Assembly: GCA_045616985.1 (NCBI GenBank)
Contig: JAZLHU010000051.1
Location: 5,884 to 69,883 of the forward strand
Length of the DNA: 64,000 bases
Direction: 5' to 3'
Source: Anaerovoracaceae bacterium
GTDB taxonomy: Bacteria; Bacillota; Clostridia; Peptostreptococcales; Anaerovoracaceae
Shown in pieces: positions 7,016 to 57,988 of the stretch. How positions within the stretch are numbered: the stretch's first letter is position 1; every line of letters starts with the position of its first letter. The notes under the pieces are model-generated. The model saw nothing but the letters and a program-made list of their open reading frames with translations. It did not search any database and was not told the DNA's origin. A program made the position numbers and the translations under genes.

Positions 7016-7050
7016 AAACTTGCTTAAAACCAACCTGCACTTAAGCTTTC

Positions 7051-7213
7051 ACAAAGTATCACTTTCATCCGCGCAGGTGCAGTGCTGCTTTTGAAACATC
7101 AGCTCTGCTTCCTGAGCTCCCTGCTGCGGAGAGCAGCTCGCTCTTAACGGAAGTCTCGCTGTGTTCAAAGACGCAGCTTATGCAAAACGCATCTGAAAGC
7201 GATCCTTTGCAAA
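7051..7213. repeat. Family-B palindromic module, extended copy
   Basis: The core acaaagtatcactttcatccgcgcaggtgcagtgctgcttttgaaacatcagctctgcttcctgagc is shared with 12437 and 54857. A distal arm, ctgaaagcgatcctttg, pairs back to the start. Confidence 0.8.
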
Positions 7214-7597: not shown

Positions 7598-8518
7598 ATG
7601 AAACAAAAACCGGTACTTGTAGTAATGGCTGCGGGAATGGGCAGCCGCTACGGCGGACTTAAGCAAATCGACAAACTTGGTCCGAACGGCGAAGTCATCA
7701 TAGACTATTCGCTTTACGATGCACACAGAGCAGGCTTTGATAAAGTTGTTTTCATCATCAAGCATGCAATTGAAGAAGATTTCAAAGAAATCATAAACCG
7801 CGGCATAGGGAAACACATGGAAACGGCATACGCATTTCAGGAGGTTTCGGATATTCCCGAGGGCTTCAGCGTTCCCGAAGAAAGAGTAAAGCCATGGGGA
7901 ACGGGCCACGCAATCCTTTCTGCAAAAGACCTCATAGACGGACCCTTTGCAGTGATCAATGCCGACGACTACTATGGGCCGGGAGTGTTTAAGGCAATAT
8001 ACGAATATCTTTGCACTGCAGAAGATAGCGATAAATACGATTACTGCATGGCAGGATACAAGCTTAAAAATACAATGTCAGAAACAGGCTCCGTTGCACG
8101 CGGAGTATGCGTGGAGGAAAACGGATGCCTTAAGCGCATCGACGAGCGCACGGACGTCAGAAAAATGGATGGTACAATTAAGTTTACCGAAGACGGCGGA
8201 CAAACCTTTACGGAGCTTGATCCGGATTCAACAGTATCAATGAACTTTTTCGGCTTTACGCCCTCTATCTTAAAAGAACTGGAGGAGAGATTTCCTGTTG
8301 CTCTGGAAAACATTTTGAAAACAAACCCGATCAAAGGGGAATTTTATATACCGATCGTTTCTTCCGAGCTTATTGTTGAAGGGAAGGCAAGCATTAAGGT
8401 ACTTCCATGCAGCGATAAATGGTTTGGGGTAACAAATAAAGAGGACAGACCAATGGTGGCAGAGTCCTTTAAAAGACTGACAGAGGAAGGAGTTTATCCG
8501 ACAGAATTATGGAAGTAA
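7598..8518 (+). CDS. Sugar-phosphate nucleotidyltransferase family protein
   Basis: N-terminal VVMAAGMGSRYGGLKQ signature (GxGxR nucleotidyltransferase loop) and NADDYYG. Confidence 0.7.
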   Translation: MKQKPVLVVMAAGMGSRYGGLKQIDKLGPNGEVIIDYSLYDAHRAGFDKVVFIIKHAIEEDFKEIINRGIGKHMETAYAFQEVSDIPEGFSVPEERVKPWGTGHAILSAKDLIDGPFAVINADDYYGPGVFKAIYEYLCTAEDSDKYDYCMAGYKLKNTMSETGSVARGVCVEENGCLKRIDERTDVRKMDGTIKFTEDGGQTFTELDPDSTVSMNFFGFTPSILKELEERFPVALENILKTNPIKGEFYIPIVSSELIVEGKASIKVLPCSDKWFGVTNKEDRPMVAESFKRLTEEGVYPTELWK

Positions 8519-9552
8519 AAGATTATCTTCATCTTCTTTGCGAGCAGCAGGGTCCTTCGGGATTTGAAAGACCGATCGCAGAGCTTGCAAAAGAATTGAT
8601 AAAACCATTTGTTGATGAGATCTGTGTTGACACCTTAGGCAACCTTATCGCAACAAAAAGGTGCGGAAAGAAAAATGCAAAGAAGATGCTCATTGCAGCG
8701 CATCTTGATGAAATCGGGCTTATGGTTAACGGCTATGAGGACGGATTTCTTTCCTTTACTCAGGTTGGCGGCGTTGATCAAAGAATGCTTCCATCCCGCG
8801 ATGTGGTCGTTATGACAAAGCCGCCTCGCGTTGGTGTTATCTGTGCACAGCCGCCTCATGTGCTTTCTGCAGAAGACATGGAAAAAGCGATCCCGATGGA
8901 AAACCTGAGAATAGACGTCGGGCTTACAGATGCTCAGGCAAAAAGGCTTATACCGATCGGAACGCCGATTACATTCAGAACAGAAGGCTTTGAGCTTGGA
9001 AAGGATTCTTATGTAAGCAAGACCTTAGACGACAGAGCATGCTTTGTATCACTGATTAAAGCGGCAGAGCTTCTTCAGAATAAAACACTTCCGTGGGATG
9101 TTGTTTTTGTGGGAAGCATTTGCGAGGAAGTCGGCGGGGCAGGCGCAGCAGTTTCCGTATTTGAAGAAGCGCCTGTCGTTTGCATGGCAATCGACGTTAC
9201 ACACGCATCAACACCGGATGCTCAGCCGGAAGCTCAGACCCACGGTCTTTCGGACGGTCCGGTTCTTTGCATCGGCCCTAATATAAACAAGGTGGTCGGC
9301 GACGGCTTATTCAAAGCCGCAAAGGATAATTACATTCCTTATCAGACGGAAATCTGCCCGGGCAGAACCGGCACGGATGCATGGGCAATGCAGATTACAA
9401 AAGAGGGCATAGCGACAGGTCTTATTGAGCTTCCGCTTCGCTACATGCATACACCTGTTGAAACAGTCAGCATTTCGGATATTGAAGATTGTGCAAAGCT
9501 TGTTTGCGCTTATGCGCAAGATCCGGGAGAGGAGGTCATGTCATGGCTGTAA
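8509..9552 (+). CDS. M42 family metallopeptidase (glutamyl aminopeptidase/FrvX-like), paralog 1
   Basis: GFE...D.LGNLIA, AHLDEIGLMV, DDRA and EEVG motifs. Confidence 0.85.
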   Translation: MEVKDYLHLLCEQQGPSGFERPIAELAKELIKPFVDEICVDTLGNLIATKRCGKKNAKKMLIAAHLDEIGLMVNGYEDGFLSFTQVGGVDQRMLPSRDVVVMTKPPRVGVICAQPPHVLSAEDMEKAIPMENLRIDVGLTDAQAKRLIPIGTPITFRTEGFELGKDSYVSKTLDDRACFVSLIKAAELLQNKTLPWDVVFVGSICEEVGGAGAAVSVFEEAPVVCMAIDVTHASTPDAQPEAQTHGLSDGPVLCIGPNINKVVGDGLFKAAKDNYIPYQTEICPGRTGTDAWAMQITKEGIATGLIELPLRYMHTPVETVSISDIEDCAKLVCAYAQDPGEEVMSWL

Positions 9553-10583
9553 AGAAAAATAAACTTCCCGAAGTGACAGAGCTGCTTTCCGAGCTTACGC
9601 TCCTTGGCGGAGTATCCGGAGTTGAAAACGAAGTAAGAGATTACATCAAAGAAAAAGCTTTGCCTTATGCAGACAGCATTAAAACAGATGCTATGGGAAA
9701 TCTCATTGTCTTTAAAAAAGGCGCAAGACGTTCTCCAAAGCTCATGCTCTCCGCACACATGGACGAAGTCGGCCTCATCGTAACAAAAATAACAGACGAA
9801 GGCTATCTTAAAATTTCACCCGTCGGCGGAATAGATATTAGAGTTGTGTTCGGCCGCAAGGTTTATGTGGGGCCAAAGGAAATCCCGGGAGTCCTCGGCC
9901 TTAAGGCAATCCACCTTACAACTGCTGAAGAACGCACCAGGATTCCGAAGTGGTCCGACCTTTACATAGACATAGGTGTTACAAGCAAAGATGATGCCCT
10001 GGAGCTTGTTTCTCTCGGCGATGTTTGCACCTTTGATTCGGACTATGTGCGTATCGGAACAAATGAAATAAAAGCAAAGGCAATTGACGACCGCTTCGGA
10101 TGTGCAGTAATGCTGAAGCTTTTGGAAGAAAAGCTTCCTGTTGACACCTGCTTTGTGTTCACCGTTCAGGAGGAAGTAGGAACAAGAGGAGCTTTCGGCG
10201 CAGCATTCTCAGTAAAGCCCGACATTGCACTTGTGCTTGAAGGAACAACATCGGCAGACTTTGCAGGCGTTCCCGATTCCAAGAAGGTAACACTTCTTGG
10301 CGCAGGTCCCGTGATTGGCTTTATGGATGCAGGAACGATTTACGACCGCGGCCTCTTTGAGCAGATAAGAGACATTGCCATAAGTAAAAACATTCCGTGG
10401 CAAATCAAAGGCCGCATCGCAGGCGGCACAGATGCCTCCGCAATTCAGCGCAGCCGTGAAGGTGTCCGCGTTGCAAGCATCTCTGCTCCGATACGCAACA
10501 TTCATTCACCAAACACAGTTGCCGATCTTCGCGATATCAAGCATGCCTGCGAGCTTGCAAAAGCTTTTGTACTAACTATATAA
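9543..10583 (+). CDS. M42 family metallopeptidase, paralog 2
   Basis: The start was moved to MAVKKNK, which follows GGAGAGGAGG and overlaps the upstream stop. Motifs AHMDEVGLIV, DDRFG and QEEVGTRGA. Confidence 0.85.
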   Translation: MAVKKNKLPEVTELLSELTLLGGVSGVENEVRDYIKEKALPYADSIKTDAMGNLIVFKKGARRSPKLMLSAHMDEVGLIVTKITDEGYLKISPVGGIDIRVVFGRKVYVGPKEIPGVLGLKAIHLTTAEERTRIPKWSDLYIDIGVTSKDDALELVSLGDVCTFDSDYVRIGTNEIKAKAIDDRFGCAVMLKLLEEKLPVDTCFVFTVQEEVGTRGAFGAAFSVKPDIALVLEGTTSADFAGVPDSKKVTLLGAGPVIGFMDAGTIYDRGLFEQIRDIAISKNIPWQIKGRIAGGTDASAIQRSREGVRVASISAPIRNIHSPNTVADLRDIKHACELAKAFVLTI

Positions 10584-10589
10584 ATATTA

Positions 10590-10797
10590 GCTCGGAAAGC
10601 GTGCGAATCTATTTCTCAGACACGCTCCCGCTATTGGGGCCCCCGGCAGCAGTTCTAAGCTCTGTCTGCACGCATACTTCAGGCTCAAAGTGCCAAAGCC
10701 TGCTGCTTTGCTCTTTGCTCCTTCGTCTGCTGCTGGCCAATCGCTAAGAACCGGCTTCCCCAAATGTCTTAGAAACAGCTTCGCCCGTTTTCCGAGC
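10590..10797. repeat. Family-A foldback (long palindromic) element, copy A1
   Basis: The two arms are reverse complements of each other (gctcggaaa...tttccgagc; tattgggg...ccccaaat; ctaagaacc). It is homologous to the five other copies. Confidence 0.85.
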
Positions 10798-10815
10798 TTA
10801 ACATTCTAAAGAGTT

Positions 10816-11223
10816 ATGAATGATCCGTTTAAACAAGACATATTAGATGATGCTCTCACGGCAAAGCAGCTGGAGCGCAAGAAGAAGAGAGAGCCGGTAA
10901 AGGAACGGAAAGCTCAGAAGGAAGCGCGCCGGAAAATCGCAGAAGAAAACCGCACCAAAAGAAACAGTTTTGCTGCGGTGATTTTTGCAGTGCTTGTTGT
11001 TCTGGCCATCATCTTCGGCAAGGACTTTAAACAAATAGTAAATCTTACAAAACAAAAAAAGCAGGCACAGGCTCAGCTTGATGCGATCAATTCAAAAATC
11101 GCTCAGCTTGAAGACGAACTTTCAAGAATAAAATCTCCGGAGTATATAGAGCAGCAGGCACGAAGCCAGCTTCGCATGATCTATCCCGGCGAAATTTTAT
11201 ATGTGATTCTTGAGGATAAATAG
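10816..11223 (+). CDS. Septum formation initiator family protein (FtsB/DivIC-like)
   Basis: Single TM segment, then a coiled coil, then YIEQQARSQLRMIYPGE, the typical DivIC/FtsB C-terminal motif. Confidence 0.75.
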   Translation: MNDPFKQDILDDALTAKQLERKKKREPVKERKAQKEARRKIAEENRTKRNSFAAVIFAVLVVLAIIFGKDFKQIVNLTKQKKQAQAQLDAINSKIAQLEDELSRIKSPEYIEQQARSQLRMIYPGEILYVILEDK

Positions 11224-11235
11224 CGCAAACAAATA

Positions 11236-11400
11236 CAGATACGCTCGCGCTTGATTGGGAGCCCGGCAGCGGTGCTAAGCTCTGCCTTTGCACAGACTTC
11301 AGTTTCAAAGTGCCAAAGCCTACTGCTTTGCTCTTTGCTCCTTCGTCTGCTGCTCGTCAATCGCTAAAAACCGGCTTCCCAAACAGTCTGCTTTGGTATC
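11236..11400. repeat. Family-A foldback element, copy A2 (more diverged)
   Basis: ttgattgggagcccggcagcggtgctaagctctgcc...aaagtgccaaagcc...cgctaaaaaccggcttcccaaaca aligns to A1. Confidence 0.8.
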
Positions 11401-11499
11401 AGAATTCATTTGCTGTATACATTAATCAGGTATGTGTTTTTAGATTTTCAAATTCAGGAATGTTTTGTCAAAGAAAAAAATGCACTCAGACAAATTGCA

Positions 11500-12423
11500 A
11501 TGAAAGCAAAAAAATCACTTGGGCAAAATTTCATAAGTGATCCGGGCTTGATCAGTGCGATAGTTGATGCTACCGGAGTCGGCCCCGAAGACACTGTAGT
11601 TGAGATCGGTCCCGGCCGCGGTGCGCTCACGTTTGAGCTTGCAAGACGCGCAAAAAAGGTCATCGCCGTTGAGCTTGATAAAGACCTGATTCCGGGCCTT
11701 CGCGCCGGGGCACTTCTTGCAGGCAATGTAGAGATCATCAACGAAGATATTTTGCAATTTGATTTCAGTTCTGCAGTCAGAACGCTTAATGAAAGCCGGG
11801 ACTCTTCGTTTTCGGATAAGCTGTATTCAGCTCAAAAACCAAAGCTTCGAATAGTCGGCAATTTGCCTTACTATATAACAACACCGATCATAATGGGCTT
11901 GCTGGAAAAGAACGTGCCCGCCGCATCTCTGACCTTTATGGTTCAGAAGGAGGTGGCGCAGCGGATCACCTCGCCGCCCGGCAGCAAAGACTACGGAGTA
12001 CTCTCCATCAGCGTTCAGTACTATTGCGATACGCAGTATATGCTTGATGCCCCCGCAGAATACTTCAGTCCCCGGCCAAAGGTCGATTCCGCCGTTGTAA
12101 ACCTTTTGCCGCGGCCCCGATCACAGCGCCTGCTTTATGCAGAGCCGTTTGCACAAAAGAAATGGCAGTCTGCAGGCGAAGGATCTAAAAAGGCATCTGC
12201 AGAAAATACAGCAGAGTTTGAAAAACAATTCTTCGCTCTCGTAAAGACCGCTTTCGTTCAGCGCCGCAAGACCATGCAAAACTGCCTCGCCGGCTACGGC
12301 GGGTTAACGAAAGAGCAGCTTGCAAAAATACTGGAAAGCTGTGCCGTCGACCCGAGCCGCAGACCCGAGACCCTCTCCATTGAGGAGTTTGTGACCGTTT
12401 TTGCGAAAATACTCAGTAATTAG
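11500..12423 (+). CDS. rsmA: 16S rRNA (adenine1518/1519-N6) dimethyltransferase
   Basis: SLGQNFI, VVEIGPGRGALT, NLPYYITTP and FVQRRKT motifs. The start was set at MKAKKSLGQNF. There are two short insertions relative to the typical length. Confidence 0.9.
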   Translation: MKAKKSLGQNFISDPGLISAIVDATGVGPEDTVVEIGPGRGALTFELARRAKKVIAVELDKDLIPGLRAGALLAGNVEIINEDILQFDFSSAVRTLNESRDSSFSDKLYSAQKPKLRIVGNLPYYITTPIIMGLLEKNVPAASLTFMVQKEVAQRITSPPGSKDYGVLSISVQYYCDTQYMLDAPAEYFSPRPKVDSAVVNLLPRPRSQRLLYAEPFAQKKWQSAGEGSKKASAENTAEFEKQFFALVKTAFVQRRKTMQNCLAGYGGLTKEQLAKILESCAVDPSRRPETLSIEEFVTVFAKILSN

Positions 12424-12436
12424 CATCAAGCTATTT

Positions 12437-13008
12437 ACAAAGAATCACTTTCATCCGCGCAGGTGCAGCGCTGCTTTTGAAACATCAGCTCTGCTTCCTA
12501 AGCTCCCTGATAAAAGTGTATTTGTGGCGAAAAGAAGCAGAAAAAATCAAAAAGACACATTTTCTCAAAAAAAGAGGCACATGTGAGCCTGTTCTATGAA
12601 GAAAAAACAGCCCTTTGTGACTATTTTTAACGGGAAAAACAGTTTGGACACAAAAAGACCTTATAAATTGTACCAAATAGAAAAAACACATCATTTTTGG
12701 CACAAGTGAGAAAATTGAAAAATGTAAGCTATATCACATACACAAATGCCTTGCCTAAGCTCCGGATAAAAGTGTATTCAATGCAATTTGCAAAAGCAGT
12801 AGACACAAATGCATTCACTTAATCTCAGAAAGCGCGAAAGGTCTTTGCGAAGACATTTGGGGAAGCCGGTTCTTAGCGACTGGCAAGCGGCAGACGAAGG
12901 AGCAAAGGGCAAAGCCGGCGGCTTTGGCACTTTGAGACTGAAATCTGCGCGCAGACAGAGCTTAGAACCGATGCAGGGGTCCCCAATAGCGGAAGCGTGT
13001 CTGAGAAA
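12437..13008 (+). repeat. Composite non-coding repeat, about 570 bp, copy D1: family-B module, A-rich spacer, module C, family-A copy A3
   Basis: Aligns end to end with 54857-55425 with few mismatches and small indels. Confidence 0.9.
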
Positions 13009-13009
13009 T
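12821..13009. repeat. Family-A foldback element, copy A3. It lies inside D1 and is inverted relative to A1.
   Basis: gacatttggggaagccggttcttagcgactggcaagcggcagacgaagg...gcttagaaccg...ccccaatagcgg. Confidence 0.85.
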
Positions 13010-13060
13010 GGTATTACGAATTTTCGTACTGATAACAAGATAATAGAAAGGAACATCAAA

Positions 13061-14065
13061 ATGGAAGCACTTGAAATACTGAAGAAGCTTAATGCCTGCT
13101 TCGGTCCATCCGGAAACGAAGGCGAAGCTGCAAAGAAAATCCGCACTATGGTTCATCTGTATGCAGATGACATAAAAACAGACACAATGGGCAATTTGAT
13201 CTGTCACGTTAAGGGAAACGGGCCGAAGCTGATGATCGCAGCTCATATGGACTCTATCGGTCTTATAGTCACGCACATCGAAAAGAACGGTATGCTCAGA
13301 TTCGGTGCAGTAGGCGGCGTTCACGCAGCAGACATACTTTCAATGCCTGTCAGATTTAAGGACGGCCTTGTGGGCGTTGTAAACCAAAATGATGATGCAA
13401 AAAAGCCGGAGCTTGATTCCATGTTTATAGACATAGGCGCCACAACAAAAGCAGAGGCAGAGAAAATGATTACCTTAGGCGACATGGCTGTTTGGGATAT
13501 GCCTGTAAGAGCGCTCGGAAAAGATTACGTTGCATCACCTTATATAGATAACAGAGCAGGCTGTGCAGCGGCAATGCTTGCAATGCAGCTTCTGGGAAAT
13601 CCGAAGACCCGCAGAAAGGCTCTTTCCTATGACACGTATTTTGTATTCACCGTTCAGGAGGAGGTTGGACTTCGCGGCGCAAAGCCCGCAAGCTTCGGCA
13701 TTGATCCTCAGTACGGCATCGTTGTAGACACCACACTTGTGGACGACGTTCCGAAGTCCAGCCATACAGGCACGTCCGTTCTGGGCGGCGGCGCAGCGAT
13801 CAAGGTAATGGATAAGTCCGTTATCTGCCATCCTGAAATGGTCGAAGCACTTTGCGCAAAGGCAAAATCAAAAAAAATCAAATATCAGCTCGACGTATTA
13901 AAGGCAGGCGGAACCGATGCAGGCGAAATGAGGAAGAATGCATGCGGCGTTTGGACAGGCGGAGTTTCCGTTGCAACGCGCTACATCCATTCTCCGCAGG
14001 AGGTCTGCTCGATCTCCGATATCGAAGCCTGCGCAAAGCTCCTTGCTGAGTTTTGCAGGCAGTAA
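13061..14065 (+). CDS. M42 family metallopeptidase, paralog 3
   Basis: The start was moved to MEALEILKKL after RBS gaaagga. The upstream 84 codons of the tracked ORF run through repeat A3. Motifs AHMDSIGLIV, DNRAG and QEEVGLRGA. Confidence 0.85.
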   Translation: MEALEILKKLNACFGPSGNEGEAAKKIRTMVHLYADDIKTDTMGNLICHVKGNGPKLMIAAHMDSIGLIVTHIEKNGMLRFGAVGGVHAADILSMPVRFKDGLVGVVNQNDDAKKPELDSMFIDIGATTKAEAEKMITLGDMAVWDMPVRALGKDYVASPYIDNRAGCAAAMLAMQLLGNPKTRRKALSYDTYFVFTVQEEVGLRGAKPASFGIDPQYGIVVDTTLVDDVPKSSHTGTSVLGGGAAIKVMDKSVICHPEMVEALCAKAKSKKIKYQLDVLKAGGTDAGEMRKNACGVWTGGVSVATRYIHSPQEVCSISDIEACAKLLAEFCRQ

Positions 14066-54560: not shown

Positions 54561-54856
54561 ATTACTACAGAACGCAGAAATATTAAGCGATTTGTTGAAA
54601 TCTTAATCAGCAAGACCTGTTCTGACACCCTTATAGGGATGTGCATCGGAGCAATTACTACAAAAAGTTTATATTCTAAGGGCTTTGTAGTAAGATTTGA
54701 ATATTTTTACTACAGAAATGCAAGTTTAAATGAGATGTGTAGTAAAAGGGCAAAAAGACAAGAATTATCTGCCCAGACAAGCCGCAATTCACACTGTTTT
54801 ACTACAATATCAAGTTTATAAGCGTTTTCTGTCGTAATACTTGTGAGGGGAAGTTT

Positions 54857-55425
54857 GCAAAGTAGCACTTTCATCCGCGCAGGTGCAGCACTGCTTTTGA
54901 AACATCATCTCTGCTTCCTGAGCGCCGGATAAAAGTGTATTTGTGGCGAAAAGAAGCAGAAAAAATCAAAAAGACACATTTTCTTAAAAAGCGGTACTTT
55001 TGACCCTGTTCTATAAAGAAAAAACAGCCCTTTGTGACTATTTTTAACGGGAAAAACAGTTTGGACACAAAAAGACCTTATAAATTGTACCAAATAGAAA
55101 AAACACATCGTTTTTGGCACAAGTGAGAAAATTGGAAAACATAAGCCGTATCGCATACACAAATGCCTTGCATAAGCTCCGGATGAAAGTGTATTCAATG
55201 CAATTTGCAAAAGCTTTGCACATAAATGCATTCACTTAAGCCCGGAAAGCGCGAAAGGTCTTTGCGAAGACATTTGGGGAAGCCTGTTCTTAGCGACTGG
55301 CAAGCGGCAGACGAAGGCGCAAAGGGCAAAGCAGCAGGCTTTGGCACTTTGAGACTGAAATCTGCGCGAAGACAGAGCTTAGAACCGCTGCAGGGGTCCC
55401 CAATAGCGGGAGCGTGTCTGAGAAA
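54857..55425 (+). repeat. Composite non-coding repeat, about 570 bp, copy D2
   Basis: Collinear with 12437-13008. Confidence 0.9.
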
Positions 55426-55447
55426 CAGCCTTTCGCGCGTTCTGAGA
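55239..55447. repeat. Family-A foldback element, copy A4 (inside D2)
   Basis: The outer arms ggaaagcgcgaaagg / cctttcgcgcg pair with each other. The core is nearly identical to A3. Confidence 0.85.
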
Positions 55448-57617: not shown

Positions 57618-57697
57618 GAGTTGCTCCTTCCGTGAAAGTCCTGCTTTTCTAATTTGAATTATATCATACAAGTGTATTTATCATGAAGTTGAAAATA

Positions 57698-57894
57698 GAA
57701 TTGGTACCCGGCACTAAAGCAGAATGTTTGGGAAGCCGGTTCTTAGCGATTGGCAAGCAACAGACGAAGGAACAAAGGACAAAGCTGTAGGCTTTGGCGC
57801 TTTGAGCCTGAAGTATGTGCGCAGACAGAGCTTAGAACCGCTGCTGGGTTCCCAACCAAGCGAGAGCGTGTCTGCGTAGTGCCGGGTACCAATT
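57698..57894. repeat. Family-A foldback element, copy A5
   Basis: A perfect 18-bp terminal inverted repeat, gaattggtacccggcact / agtgccgggtaccaattc, encloses a diverged family-A core. Confidence 0.85.
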
Positions 57895-57988
57895 CTTTTA
57901 AACATGTTGCAATATATAACAAAAAAGAACATAATACTCTCATAAGACAGGTGACCACATCAGCGGCACCGAGTTGGAGGTTGGAAAA

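Follow-up and report, generated by a model that had tools for sequence, protein, structure and literature searches.

The 64,000-nt stretch analyzed here (the window, within which all positions are numbered) belongs to the draft genome of an Anaerovoracaceae bacterium, which comprises 1.34 Mb in 56 contigs, with 43% G+C and an estimated completeness of 98%. At 10.5–13.1 kb it carries a gene for an M42 peptidase, the genes divIC and rsmA, and a second M42 peptidase gene, and each of the three gaps between them (M42/divIC, divIC/rsmA, and rsmA/M42) holds one copy of a non-coding foldback repeat, which is the subject of this study. The initial annotation had placed copies in these gaps and had counted six in the window, in both orientations and always intergenic. 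A repeat search, a six-way alignment and a map of the open reading frames (ORFs) agreed with this description: all six copies (A1 to A6, Table 1) were recovered where they had been placed, in both orientations and between long ORFs.

The mean column identity across the six copies was 75%, and the long invariant stretches lay centrally. Folding of A1 gave a single long hairpin on both strands, at −85.1 kcal/mol on one (z −6.95) and −92.9 kcal/mol on the other (z −5.93); no sequence among 200 shuffles reached such stability, which bears out the earlier view of the copies as long imperfect hairpins. The arm pairs that had been quoted for A1, A5, and A6 were all present in the six-way alignment. 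The right arm of A5 is related to that of A2, and the arms of A6 represent a third arm type, common to copies on contigs C4 and C23. Copies A3 and A4 are not independent: the window contains two duplicates of a ~570-bp non-coding block, each of which ends in one of them. This block is a composite of a 76-nt module, a 300-nt module and the foldback copy; its two duplicates are 87–97% identical and stand directly upstream of two unrelated genes, and the 76-nt module recurs 3' of a histidine kinase gene.

Table 1. Foldback copies and neighboring features in the window.
Feature	Position	Strand	Description
Copy A1	10588–10801	+	Full long form; between M42 peptidase gene (stop 10583) and divIC (start 10816)
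A1 outer arms			gctcggaaagcg (left) / cgttttccgagc (right)
A1 conserved core	10617–10769	+	CAGAC...GTCT
A1 core parts			One-sided bulge ACGCTCCCGCT; TTGGGG/CCCCAA helix; helix CAGTTCTAAGC/GCTAAGAACCG with A·A mismatch
Apical extension of A1	10668–10733	+	~65 nt; defines the long form; missing from short forms
Copy A2	11233–11411	+	divIC/rsmA gap; left outer arm mostly lost
Copy A3	12820–13020	-	Upstream of second M42 peptidase gene; right end of a ~570-bp non-coding composite
Copy A4	55237–55442	-	Right end of the second ~570-bp composite; 94% identical to A3 over 127 nt
Copy A5	57692–57903	-	Own outer arms: perfect 18-bp pair gaattggtacccggcact/agtgccgggtaccaattc
Copy A6	63816–64000	+	Clipped by window end; reaches ~64002 on the contig
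First ~570-bp composite	12437–13008		Ends in A3
Second ~570-bp composite	54854–55447		Ends in A4
76-nt module	7048–7123		3' of histidine kinase gene
Three adjacent genes	7598–10583		Between histidine kinase gene and divIC; the last M42-type according to the initial annotation
Second M42 peptidase gene	13063–14065		3' of rsmA

Conserved core and variable arms

Alignments of diverse copies showed that the conserved part of the family is its center, not its ends. This core is an irregular hairpin of about 100 nt. At its base lies a closing helix of varying sequence (GGAC/GTCC, GGGG/CCCC, or AAAAA/TTTTT), followed by the highly conserved one-sided bulge ACGCTYNCGCT, a freely varying helix (TTGGGG/CCCCAA in the genus of the window, GAAAAG/CTTTTC and others elsewhere), an invariant helix CGGTNCTAAGC/GCTAAGNACCG (interrupted by a conserved A·A mismatch and containing a covarying N), and a further helix that leads to a variable tip. 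A mini-hairpin inside the bulge, or a three-way junction, is unsupported, since it would comprise only two pairs and these are nearly invariant. The idea that the ~65-nt apical module is a separate, nested element was rejected, because a search of this genome never found it outside the foldback copies.

Base pairs were counted in a plain MAFFT alignment of 65 diverse copies, with the structure written by hand. Paired cells in the core amounted to 68.1%, against 59.0% after shuffling; the covariation score was 0.246, against 0.123, and none of 500 shuffles reached the observed value. Slid registers of the structure all scored lower than the true one. The invariance of CGGTNCTAAGC/GCTAAGNACCG in this set is partly forced by the word used for the search. 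In the metagenome-assembled genome (MAG) G041, labeled Eisenbergiella, whose copies were found by a different word, the central helix has many compensated variants (for example, GGTGCTAAAC/GTTAAGCACC, TGGTCCTAGGT/ACCAAGGACCA, and CTAGGC/GCCAAG), and the A·A mismatch is retained. Pairing in the core is kept by compensatory changes.

This covariation, with compensatory changes in the CGGTNCTAAGC helix even inside one genome, speaks for structured non-coding RNA genes or cis-regulatory RNAs, in which the core would be the functional part and the variable basal stem would merely close it. The non-Watson-Crick positions of the core lean the same way, with 160 G·T against 94 A·C on the forward strand in an alignment that is not structure-aware. 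Nevertheless, we consider such RNAs an improbable explanation in view of the genomic context. The core has the orientation of its co-directional neighbors at 31 loci and the opposite one at 29 (with 17 convergent and 13 divergent arrangements), and orthologous copies can be flipped (see below). Genes abut the hairpins on either side, so that a promoter would have no space; a promoter and terminator scan of 10400–13200 remained at chance level, and no promoter-like site was found inside any copy there. Furthermore, near-perfect arms of 50–90 bp are not a feature of RNA genes, copies in one related genome are flanked by target duplications (see below), and Rfam 15 gave no match to the window at the gathering score, to the element itself at E ≤ 10, or to eight related loci at E ≤ 1.

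Many copies span the entire gap between co-directional genes, which implies that they are transcribed with the operon in either orientation. A role as intrinsic terminator found no support in the terminator scan of 10400–13200, which was at chance level. Most copies lack a T run; three divergent copies on contigs C12, C19, and C32 lie just 3' of genes and have a terminator-like tip, followed by T runs. No protein family recurred beside the element among 120 loci.

In each copy the core is flanked by arms of 20–90 bp, and the whole hairpin measures 128–295 bp. The arms differ from copy to copy yet pair within each copy, as the initial annotation had noticed in the window. Local alignment of the two arms of a copy gave a median score of about 18 and a maximum of 64, far above the control in which the left arm of one copy was aligned with the right arm of another (median 8, maximum 12). 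The copies of G041, at least 42 in number, have in common the core and the first ~20 bp of the stem; their arms of 54–77 bp match within a copy at 53/54 to 74/76 positions, and between copies they consist of hypervariable blocks amid semi-conserved ones.

Mismatches in the arms comprised 136 G·T and 187 A·C on the core's own strand, and this lack of a G·T excess fits homogenization at the DNA level better than selection for an RNA stem. The G·T balance leans in opposite directions in arms and core, and as a strand test of function it is not decisive. Two explanations had been offered for the pairing of the arms, selection for the hairpin and arm-to-arm homogenization; our analysis favors homogenization for the arms and implies selection for the core.

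The outer arms of the main subfamily also occur as fragments in this genome. On contig C35 (159–1035) they (AGCTCGGAAAGCGCGCAAGGCTTTTG/AAAAGACCTTTCGCGCTTTCTGAGCT) stand at either end of an ~870-bp non-coding unit with a full foldback copy inside it; arm sequence may therefore also provide inverted ends for larger units. Several repeat modules make up the mosaic of intergenic DNA in this genome.

Spread, transposition, and persistence

A search of the draft genome with nhmmer and a profile of the six copies revealed 17 full copies, two short forms without the apical 65 nt, and three divergent copies, distributed over 13 contigs and all intergenic, as well as several fragments; a covariance model also gave 22 copies. 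For many copies the nearest contig end is only a few hundred bases away; the assembly is therefore broken by the repeat, and the count of 22 is a lower bound. With the covariance model, 14 of 20 species of the same genus had 1–22 copies, and the other six had none. A core word (CAGCGGTNCTAAGCTC...CTAAGNACCGG), scanned against one genome per species, was found in at least 120 stretches of MAGs from the guts of ruminants and other animals. Among the core-word matches listed, the MAGs were labeled Lachnospiraceae, Butyrivibrio, Eisenbergiella, Wujia, Mogibacterium, Anaerovoracaceae, and Eubacterium, with one labeled Selenomonadaceae and one Muribaculaceae. The copies are found across the genome and in many others, in line with the earlier proposal of a dispersed family rather than a local duplication.

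In an even draw of 400 genomes of the class, the element was present in only eight, six of which belong to one other family. Such patchiness is expected of a mobile element, and a spread that is broad but patchy, in a family whose core is nearly identical throughout, speaks for horizontal movement. The core had no match in plasmid or phage collections and a single match in IMG/VR. For DivIC itself, a metagenome scan found no relative, and there was no exact-protein match on record.

Signs of transposition were found in a Lachnospiraceae MAG (G437) with at least 40 copies, which are 76–96% alike over the whole of arm plus core. These copies have common terminal inverted repeats, with ends of approximately TAGGY-GTTTGCGAAAC. 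The ends were set with a profile, each copy being matched on both strands among 37 hits, and perfect 8-mer direct repeats accompanied 16 of these hits but none of the 37 controls, in which flanks from different copies were combined. The direct repeats are 8–12 bp long (for example, TTACAAATC, AGAGAGATG, AACATATAGGTA, ATTAGAGGAAT, and TGTTCGTCTTAA). Hairpins with terminal inverted repeats and target duplications of this length indicate insertion by a staggered cut. At 108 loci of other genomes the enrichment was weaker, with four perfect 8-mers against none in the control, and two loci (L062 and L096) were clear. At a locus of G041 (L195, C148:500–1200), two copies lie head to head and an arm of one interrupts the central helix of the other, possibly as a result of the insertion of one copy into another.

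As the arms of many copies are unrelated, the mobile unit might instead be a small core element that inserts into the tips of pre-existing hairpins, such as terminators or other miniature inverted-repeat transposable elements (MITEs), the arms being its target. The ~65-nt module of the long form sits exactly at the core tip, and the divergent copies have a terminator-like hairpin at the tip, both of which would agree with such a mechanism. We judge it very improbable, because near-perfect palindromes of 50–90 bp are unlikely to pre-exist, the arms of G041 with their semi-conserved blocks are homologous rather than random targets, and the arms of G437 belong to the transposed unit. Moreover, the apical module never occurs on its own, and we found no empty hairpin that would correspond to a filled site.

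The initial annotation had suggested an IS200/IS605 TnpA or a REP-associated tyrosine transposase (RAYT) as the autonomous partner. The search that we made speaks against both: Y1 transposases (RAYT and IS200/IS605 TnpA; Y1_Tnp, PF01797) were absent from G002, G005, G008, G011, and G012, which carry 4–22 copies, whereas the copy-free genomes G003, G006, and G009 have them; this distribution across the genus rules out such a partner. The genome of the window has one Y1_Tnp fragment of 32 bits at a contig end. A palindromic element derived from IS200/IS605 was likewise rejected on account of the absence of Y1_Tnp from carriers and the target duplications in G437. HUH enzymes are not known to make target duplications; the G437 relative has them.

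The history of individual sites was followed in contigs from three sister species (L162, L164, and L166), the RsmA proteins of which are 77–83% identical. In the divIC/rsmA gap, all three have a copy in the short form that matches A2 in its flanks and orientation; A2 was therefore inherited, and its long apex was gained later. At the site 3' of rsmA, L162 has a long copy and L164 a short one; that of L166 is also short, and it is inverted with its arms included. The histidine kinase/divIC gap holds a copy in L162 and a different repeat module, the 76-nt module, in L164 and L166. Intergenic blocks with the element have been exchanged wholesale between the sister species. In more distant species (RsmA ~62–65% identical) a copy is found upstream of divIC, in opposite orientation in G008 and in G002/G005, with three adjacent compensated changes in the arms, TAT/ATA vs. 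GGT/ACC.

The copies of this genome have the appearance of old, reshuffled elements, not of recent insertions. The comparison of orthologous sites, together with the confinement of the apex to the element, points to long residence, inversion through recombination of the arms with each other, and exchange of segments between copies. The evidence shows transposition in one lineage; in that of the window it shows copies that persist, flip, and exchange their apex.

The gene order at this locus varies as well. Three adjacent genes separate the histidine kinase gene from divIC in the window (Table 1), and in L162, L164, and L166 the kinase gene stands directly before divIC. The gene 3' of rsmA is the second M42 gene in the window and serS in L164. 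This local rearrangement around divIC/rsmA is bounded by repeat modules.

Nature of the element and its relatives

Based on these results, we regard the repeat as probably, although by no means certainly, a non-autonomous MITE-like foldback DNA element with arm-to-arm homogenization, with a wide but patchy distribution among gut and rumen Clostridia. Each copy has its conserved core at the tip of two inverted arms, and the arms are particular to one lineage or to one copy. Its spread would be driven by a transposase supplied in trans. After insertion, recombination or gene conversion between the arms would keep them complementary, and the same process would flip the center and could lengthen the palindrome. 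Segment exchange between copies would explain why every main-family copy in this genome has the long apex. The constraint on the core would probably come from a protein that recognizes the folded single strand. Copies transcribed with operons would form long RNA hairpins in either orientation; a sequence-specific RNA role is not supported.

Several observations weigh against this interpretation. In ordinary MITEs it is the ends that are conserved; in this family it is the center, and the termini vary from lineage to lineage. Arm-to-arm conversion should erase the A·A mismatch and the one-sided bulge, yet both persist, and selection must therefore act on the core. A target duplication was seen at no copy of this genome. 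The autonomous partner was not found either: in agreement with the initial annotation, which had seen no transposase with the copies, the search of this genome revealed no multi-copy transposase, and the only multi-copy proteins in it came from spurious frames that run through the repeat. It has one ISL3-type transposase gene (C16:21–596, clipped by the contig end) and one of IS66 type (C42:6516–8123). They were rejected as partners, since their ends are unlike the arms and there are carriers without the genes: G437 and G041 lack ISL3, and the IS66 of G437 is an 80-residue fragment only. Insertion sequences are often lost from MAGs, and the absence of a transposase is for this reason weak evidence.

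Finally, the retention of the element at orthologous sites across the deep divergence seen in RsmA could mean that the host uses it. The copies might then be a host-exapted structural element, comparable to REP/BIME of Escherichia coli and serving the host in either orientation, for instance as a stabilizer of mRNA 3' ends, an insulator between cistrons, or a site for a nucleoid protein or topoisomerase on a cruciform. Apart from this retention, a core that is more conserved than its flanks and keeps its asymmetries would be in accordance with a host role, as would hairpins that often occupy the whole gap between co-directional genes, the maintenance of about 22 copies in a small and compact genome, and the divergent copies C12, C19, and C32, which lie just after genes and precede T runs. 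On the other hand, the element is missing from 6 of the 20 species of the genus and from 98% of the sampled genomes of the class, and its number ranges from 0 to 22 within one genus. Furthermore, most copies are without a T run, the terminator scan stayed at chance level, and element-bearing intergenic blocks were swapped wholesale between sister species. We therefore consider host exaptation unlikely, although it deserves to be kept in view.

More speculatively, a protein may read the ~100-nt core in single-stranded form, as a functional folded module marked by the CGGTNCTAAGC/GCTAAGNACCG helix, the obligatory A·A mismatch, and the one-sided ACGCTYNCGCT bulge; as a specific proposal, we hold this to be rather doubtful. 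If true, it could represent a new way of mobilizing hairpin DNA or a host-exapted regulatory hairpin across several families of Clostridia, and the co-evolving arms would be a by-product of palindrome dynamics. A dedicated protein reading the core would be an unrecognized mobilization or regulatory factor in important gut bacteria.

The family is undescribed in the libraries searched, as had been supposed, with no match in Rfam 15 or in plasmid and phage collections, and a literature search with the core words returned only one unrelated primer, one by topic only unrelated CRISPR material. It is a familiar kind of element with an unusual architecture. Its placement among MITE/REP/Correia-type elements is supported by the related G437 subfamily with its target-site duplications. 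We compared it with the foldback MITEs Correia/NEMIS of Neisseria, RUP of Streptococcus pneumoniae, ERIC/IRU and YPAL of enterobacteria, and bcr1 of the Bacillus cereus group. Like these, it is short (130–290 bp), non-coding, intergenic, and multi-copy, occurs in both orientations, folds into a hairpin as a whole unit, and, in at least one lineage, has terminal inverted repeats and target duplications. ERIC variants carry internal insertions, as do variants of this family. Unlike the foldback MITEs, it has a central core conserved across bacterial families and termini that vary by lineage and even by copy; the arms of one copy co-evolve and reach 90 bp; and no parent insertion sequence is known for it. 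MITEs are expected to have terminal inverted repeats that are common to the copies and match an autonomous insertion sequence; here, common termini were found within subfamilies only.

With REP/BIME and REPINs the family shares palindromic intergenic repeats at persistent orthologous sites, mosaics with other modules and maintained pairing, and a host role is possible, as for REP/BIME. Its unit is three to five times longer than that of REP/REPIN (20–40 bp), no GTAG-type tetranucleotide tag was seen in the alignments, and, in contrast to RAYT-mobilized REPINs, several carrier genomes have neither RAYT nor another Y1 transposase. The inverted repeats around an asymmetric center and the two orientations at orthologous loci recall the invertons of gut bacteria. 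In contrast to these, no promoter-like site was found in the core (scan of 10400–13200), no recombinase gene lies nearby, and the flanking repeats are variable where the site of an invertase should be conserved.

In uncultured gut and rumen Clostridia, a repeat that is unnamed in RNA and repeat libraries is present at tens of copies per genome, breaks MAG assemblies, and occupies gaps in housekeeping operons. With its conserved center, co-evolving arms, flips and apex swaps, it offers a natural system for studying the maintenance, lengthening and inversion of palindromes in bacteria.

A second, divergent subfamily is present in the draft genome at C12:3174–3329, C19:4593–4745, and C32:35619–35763. 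It is marked by the bulge ACGGCTCTCGCC, the helix CTGCGG/CCGCAG, and a tip in the form of a terminator-like A-run/T-run hairpin. Its nearest relatives are copies in MAGs labeled Clostridiales and Mogibacterium (L086, L122, and L048).

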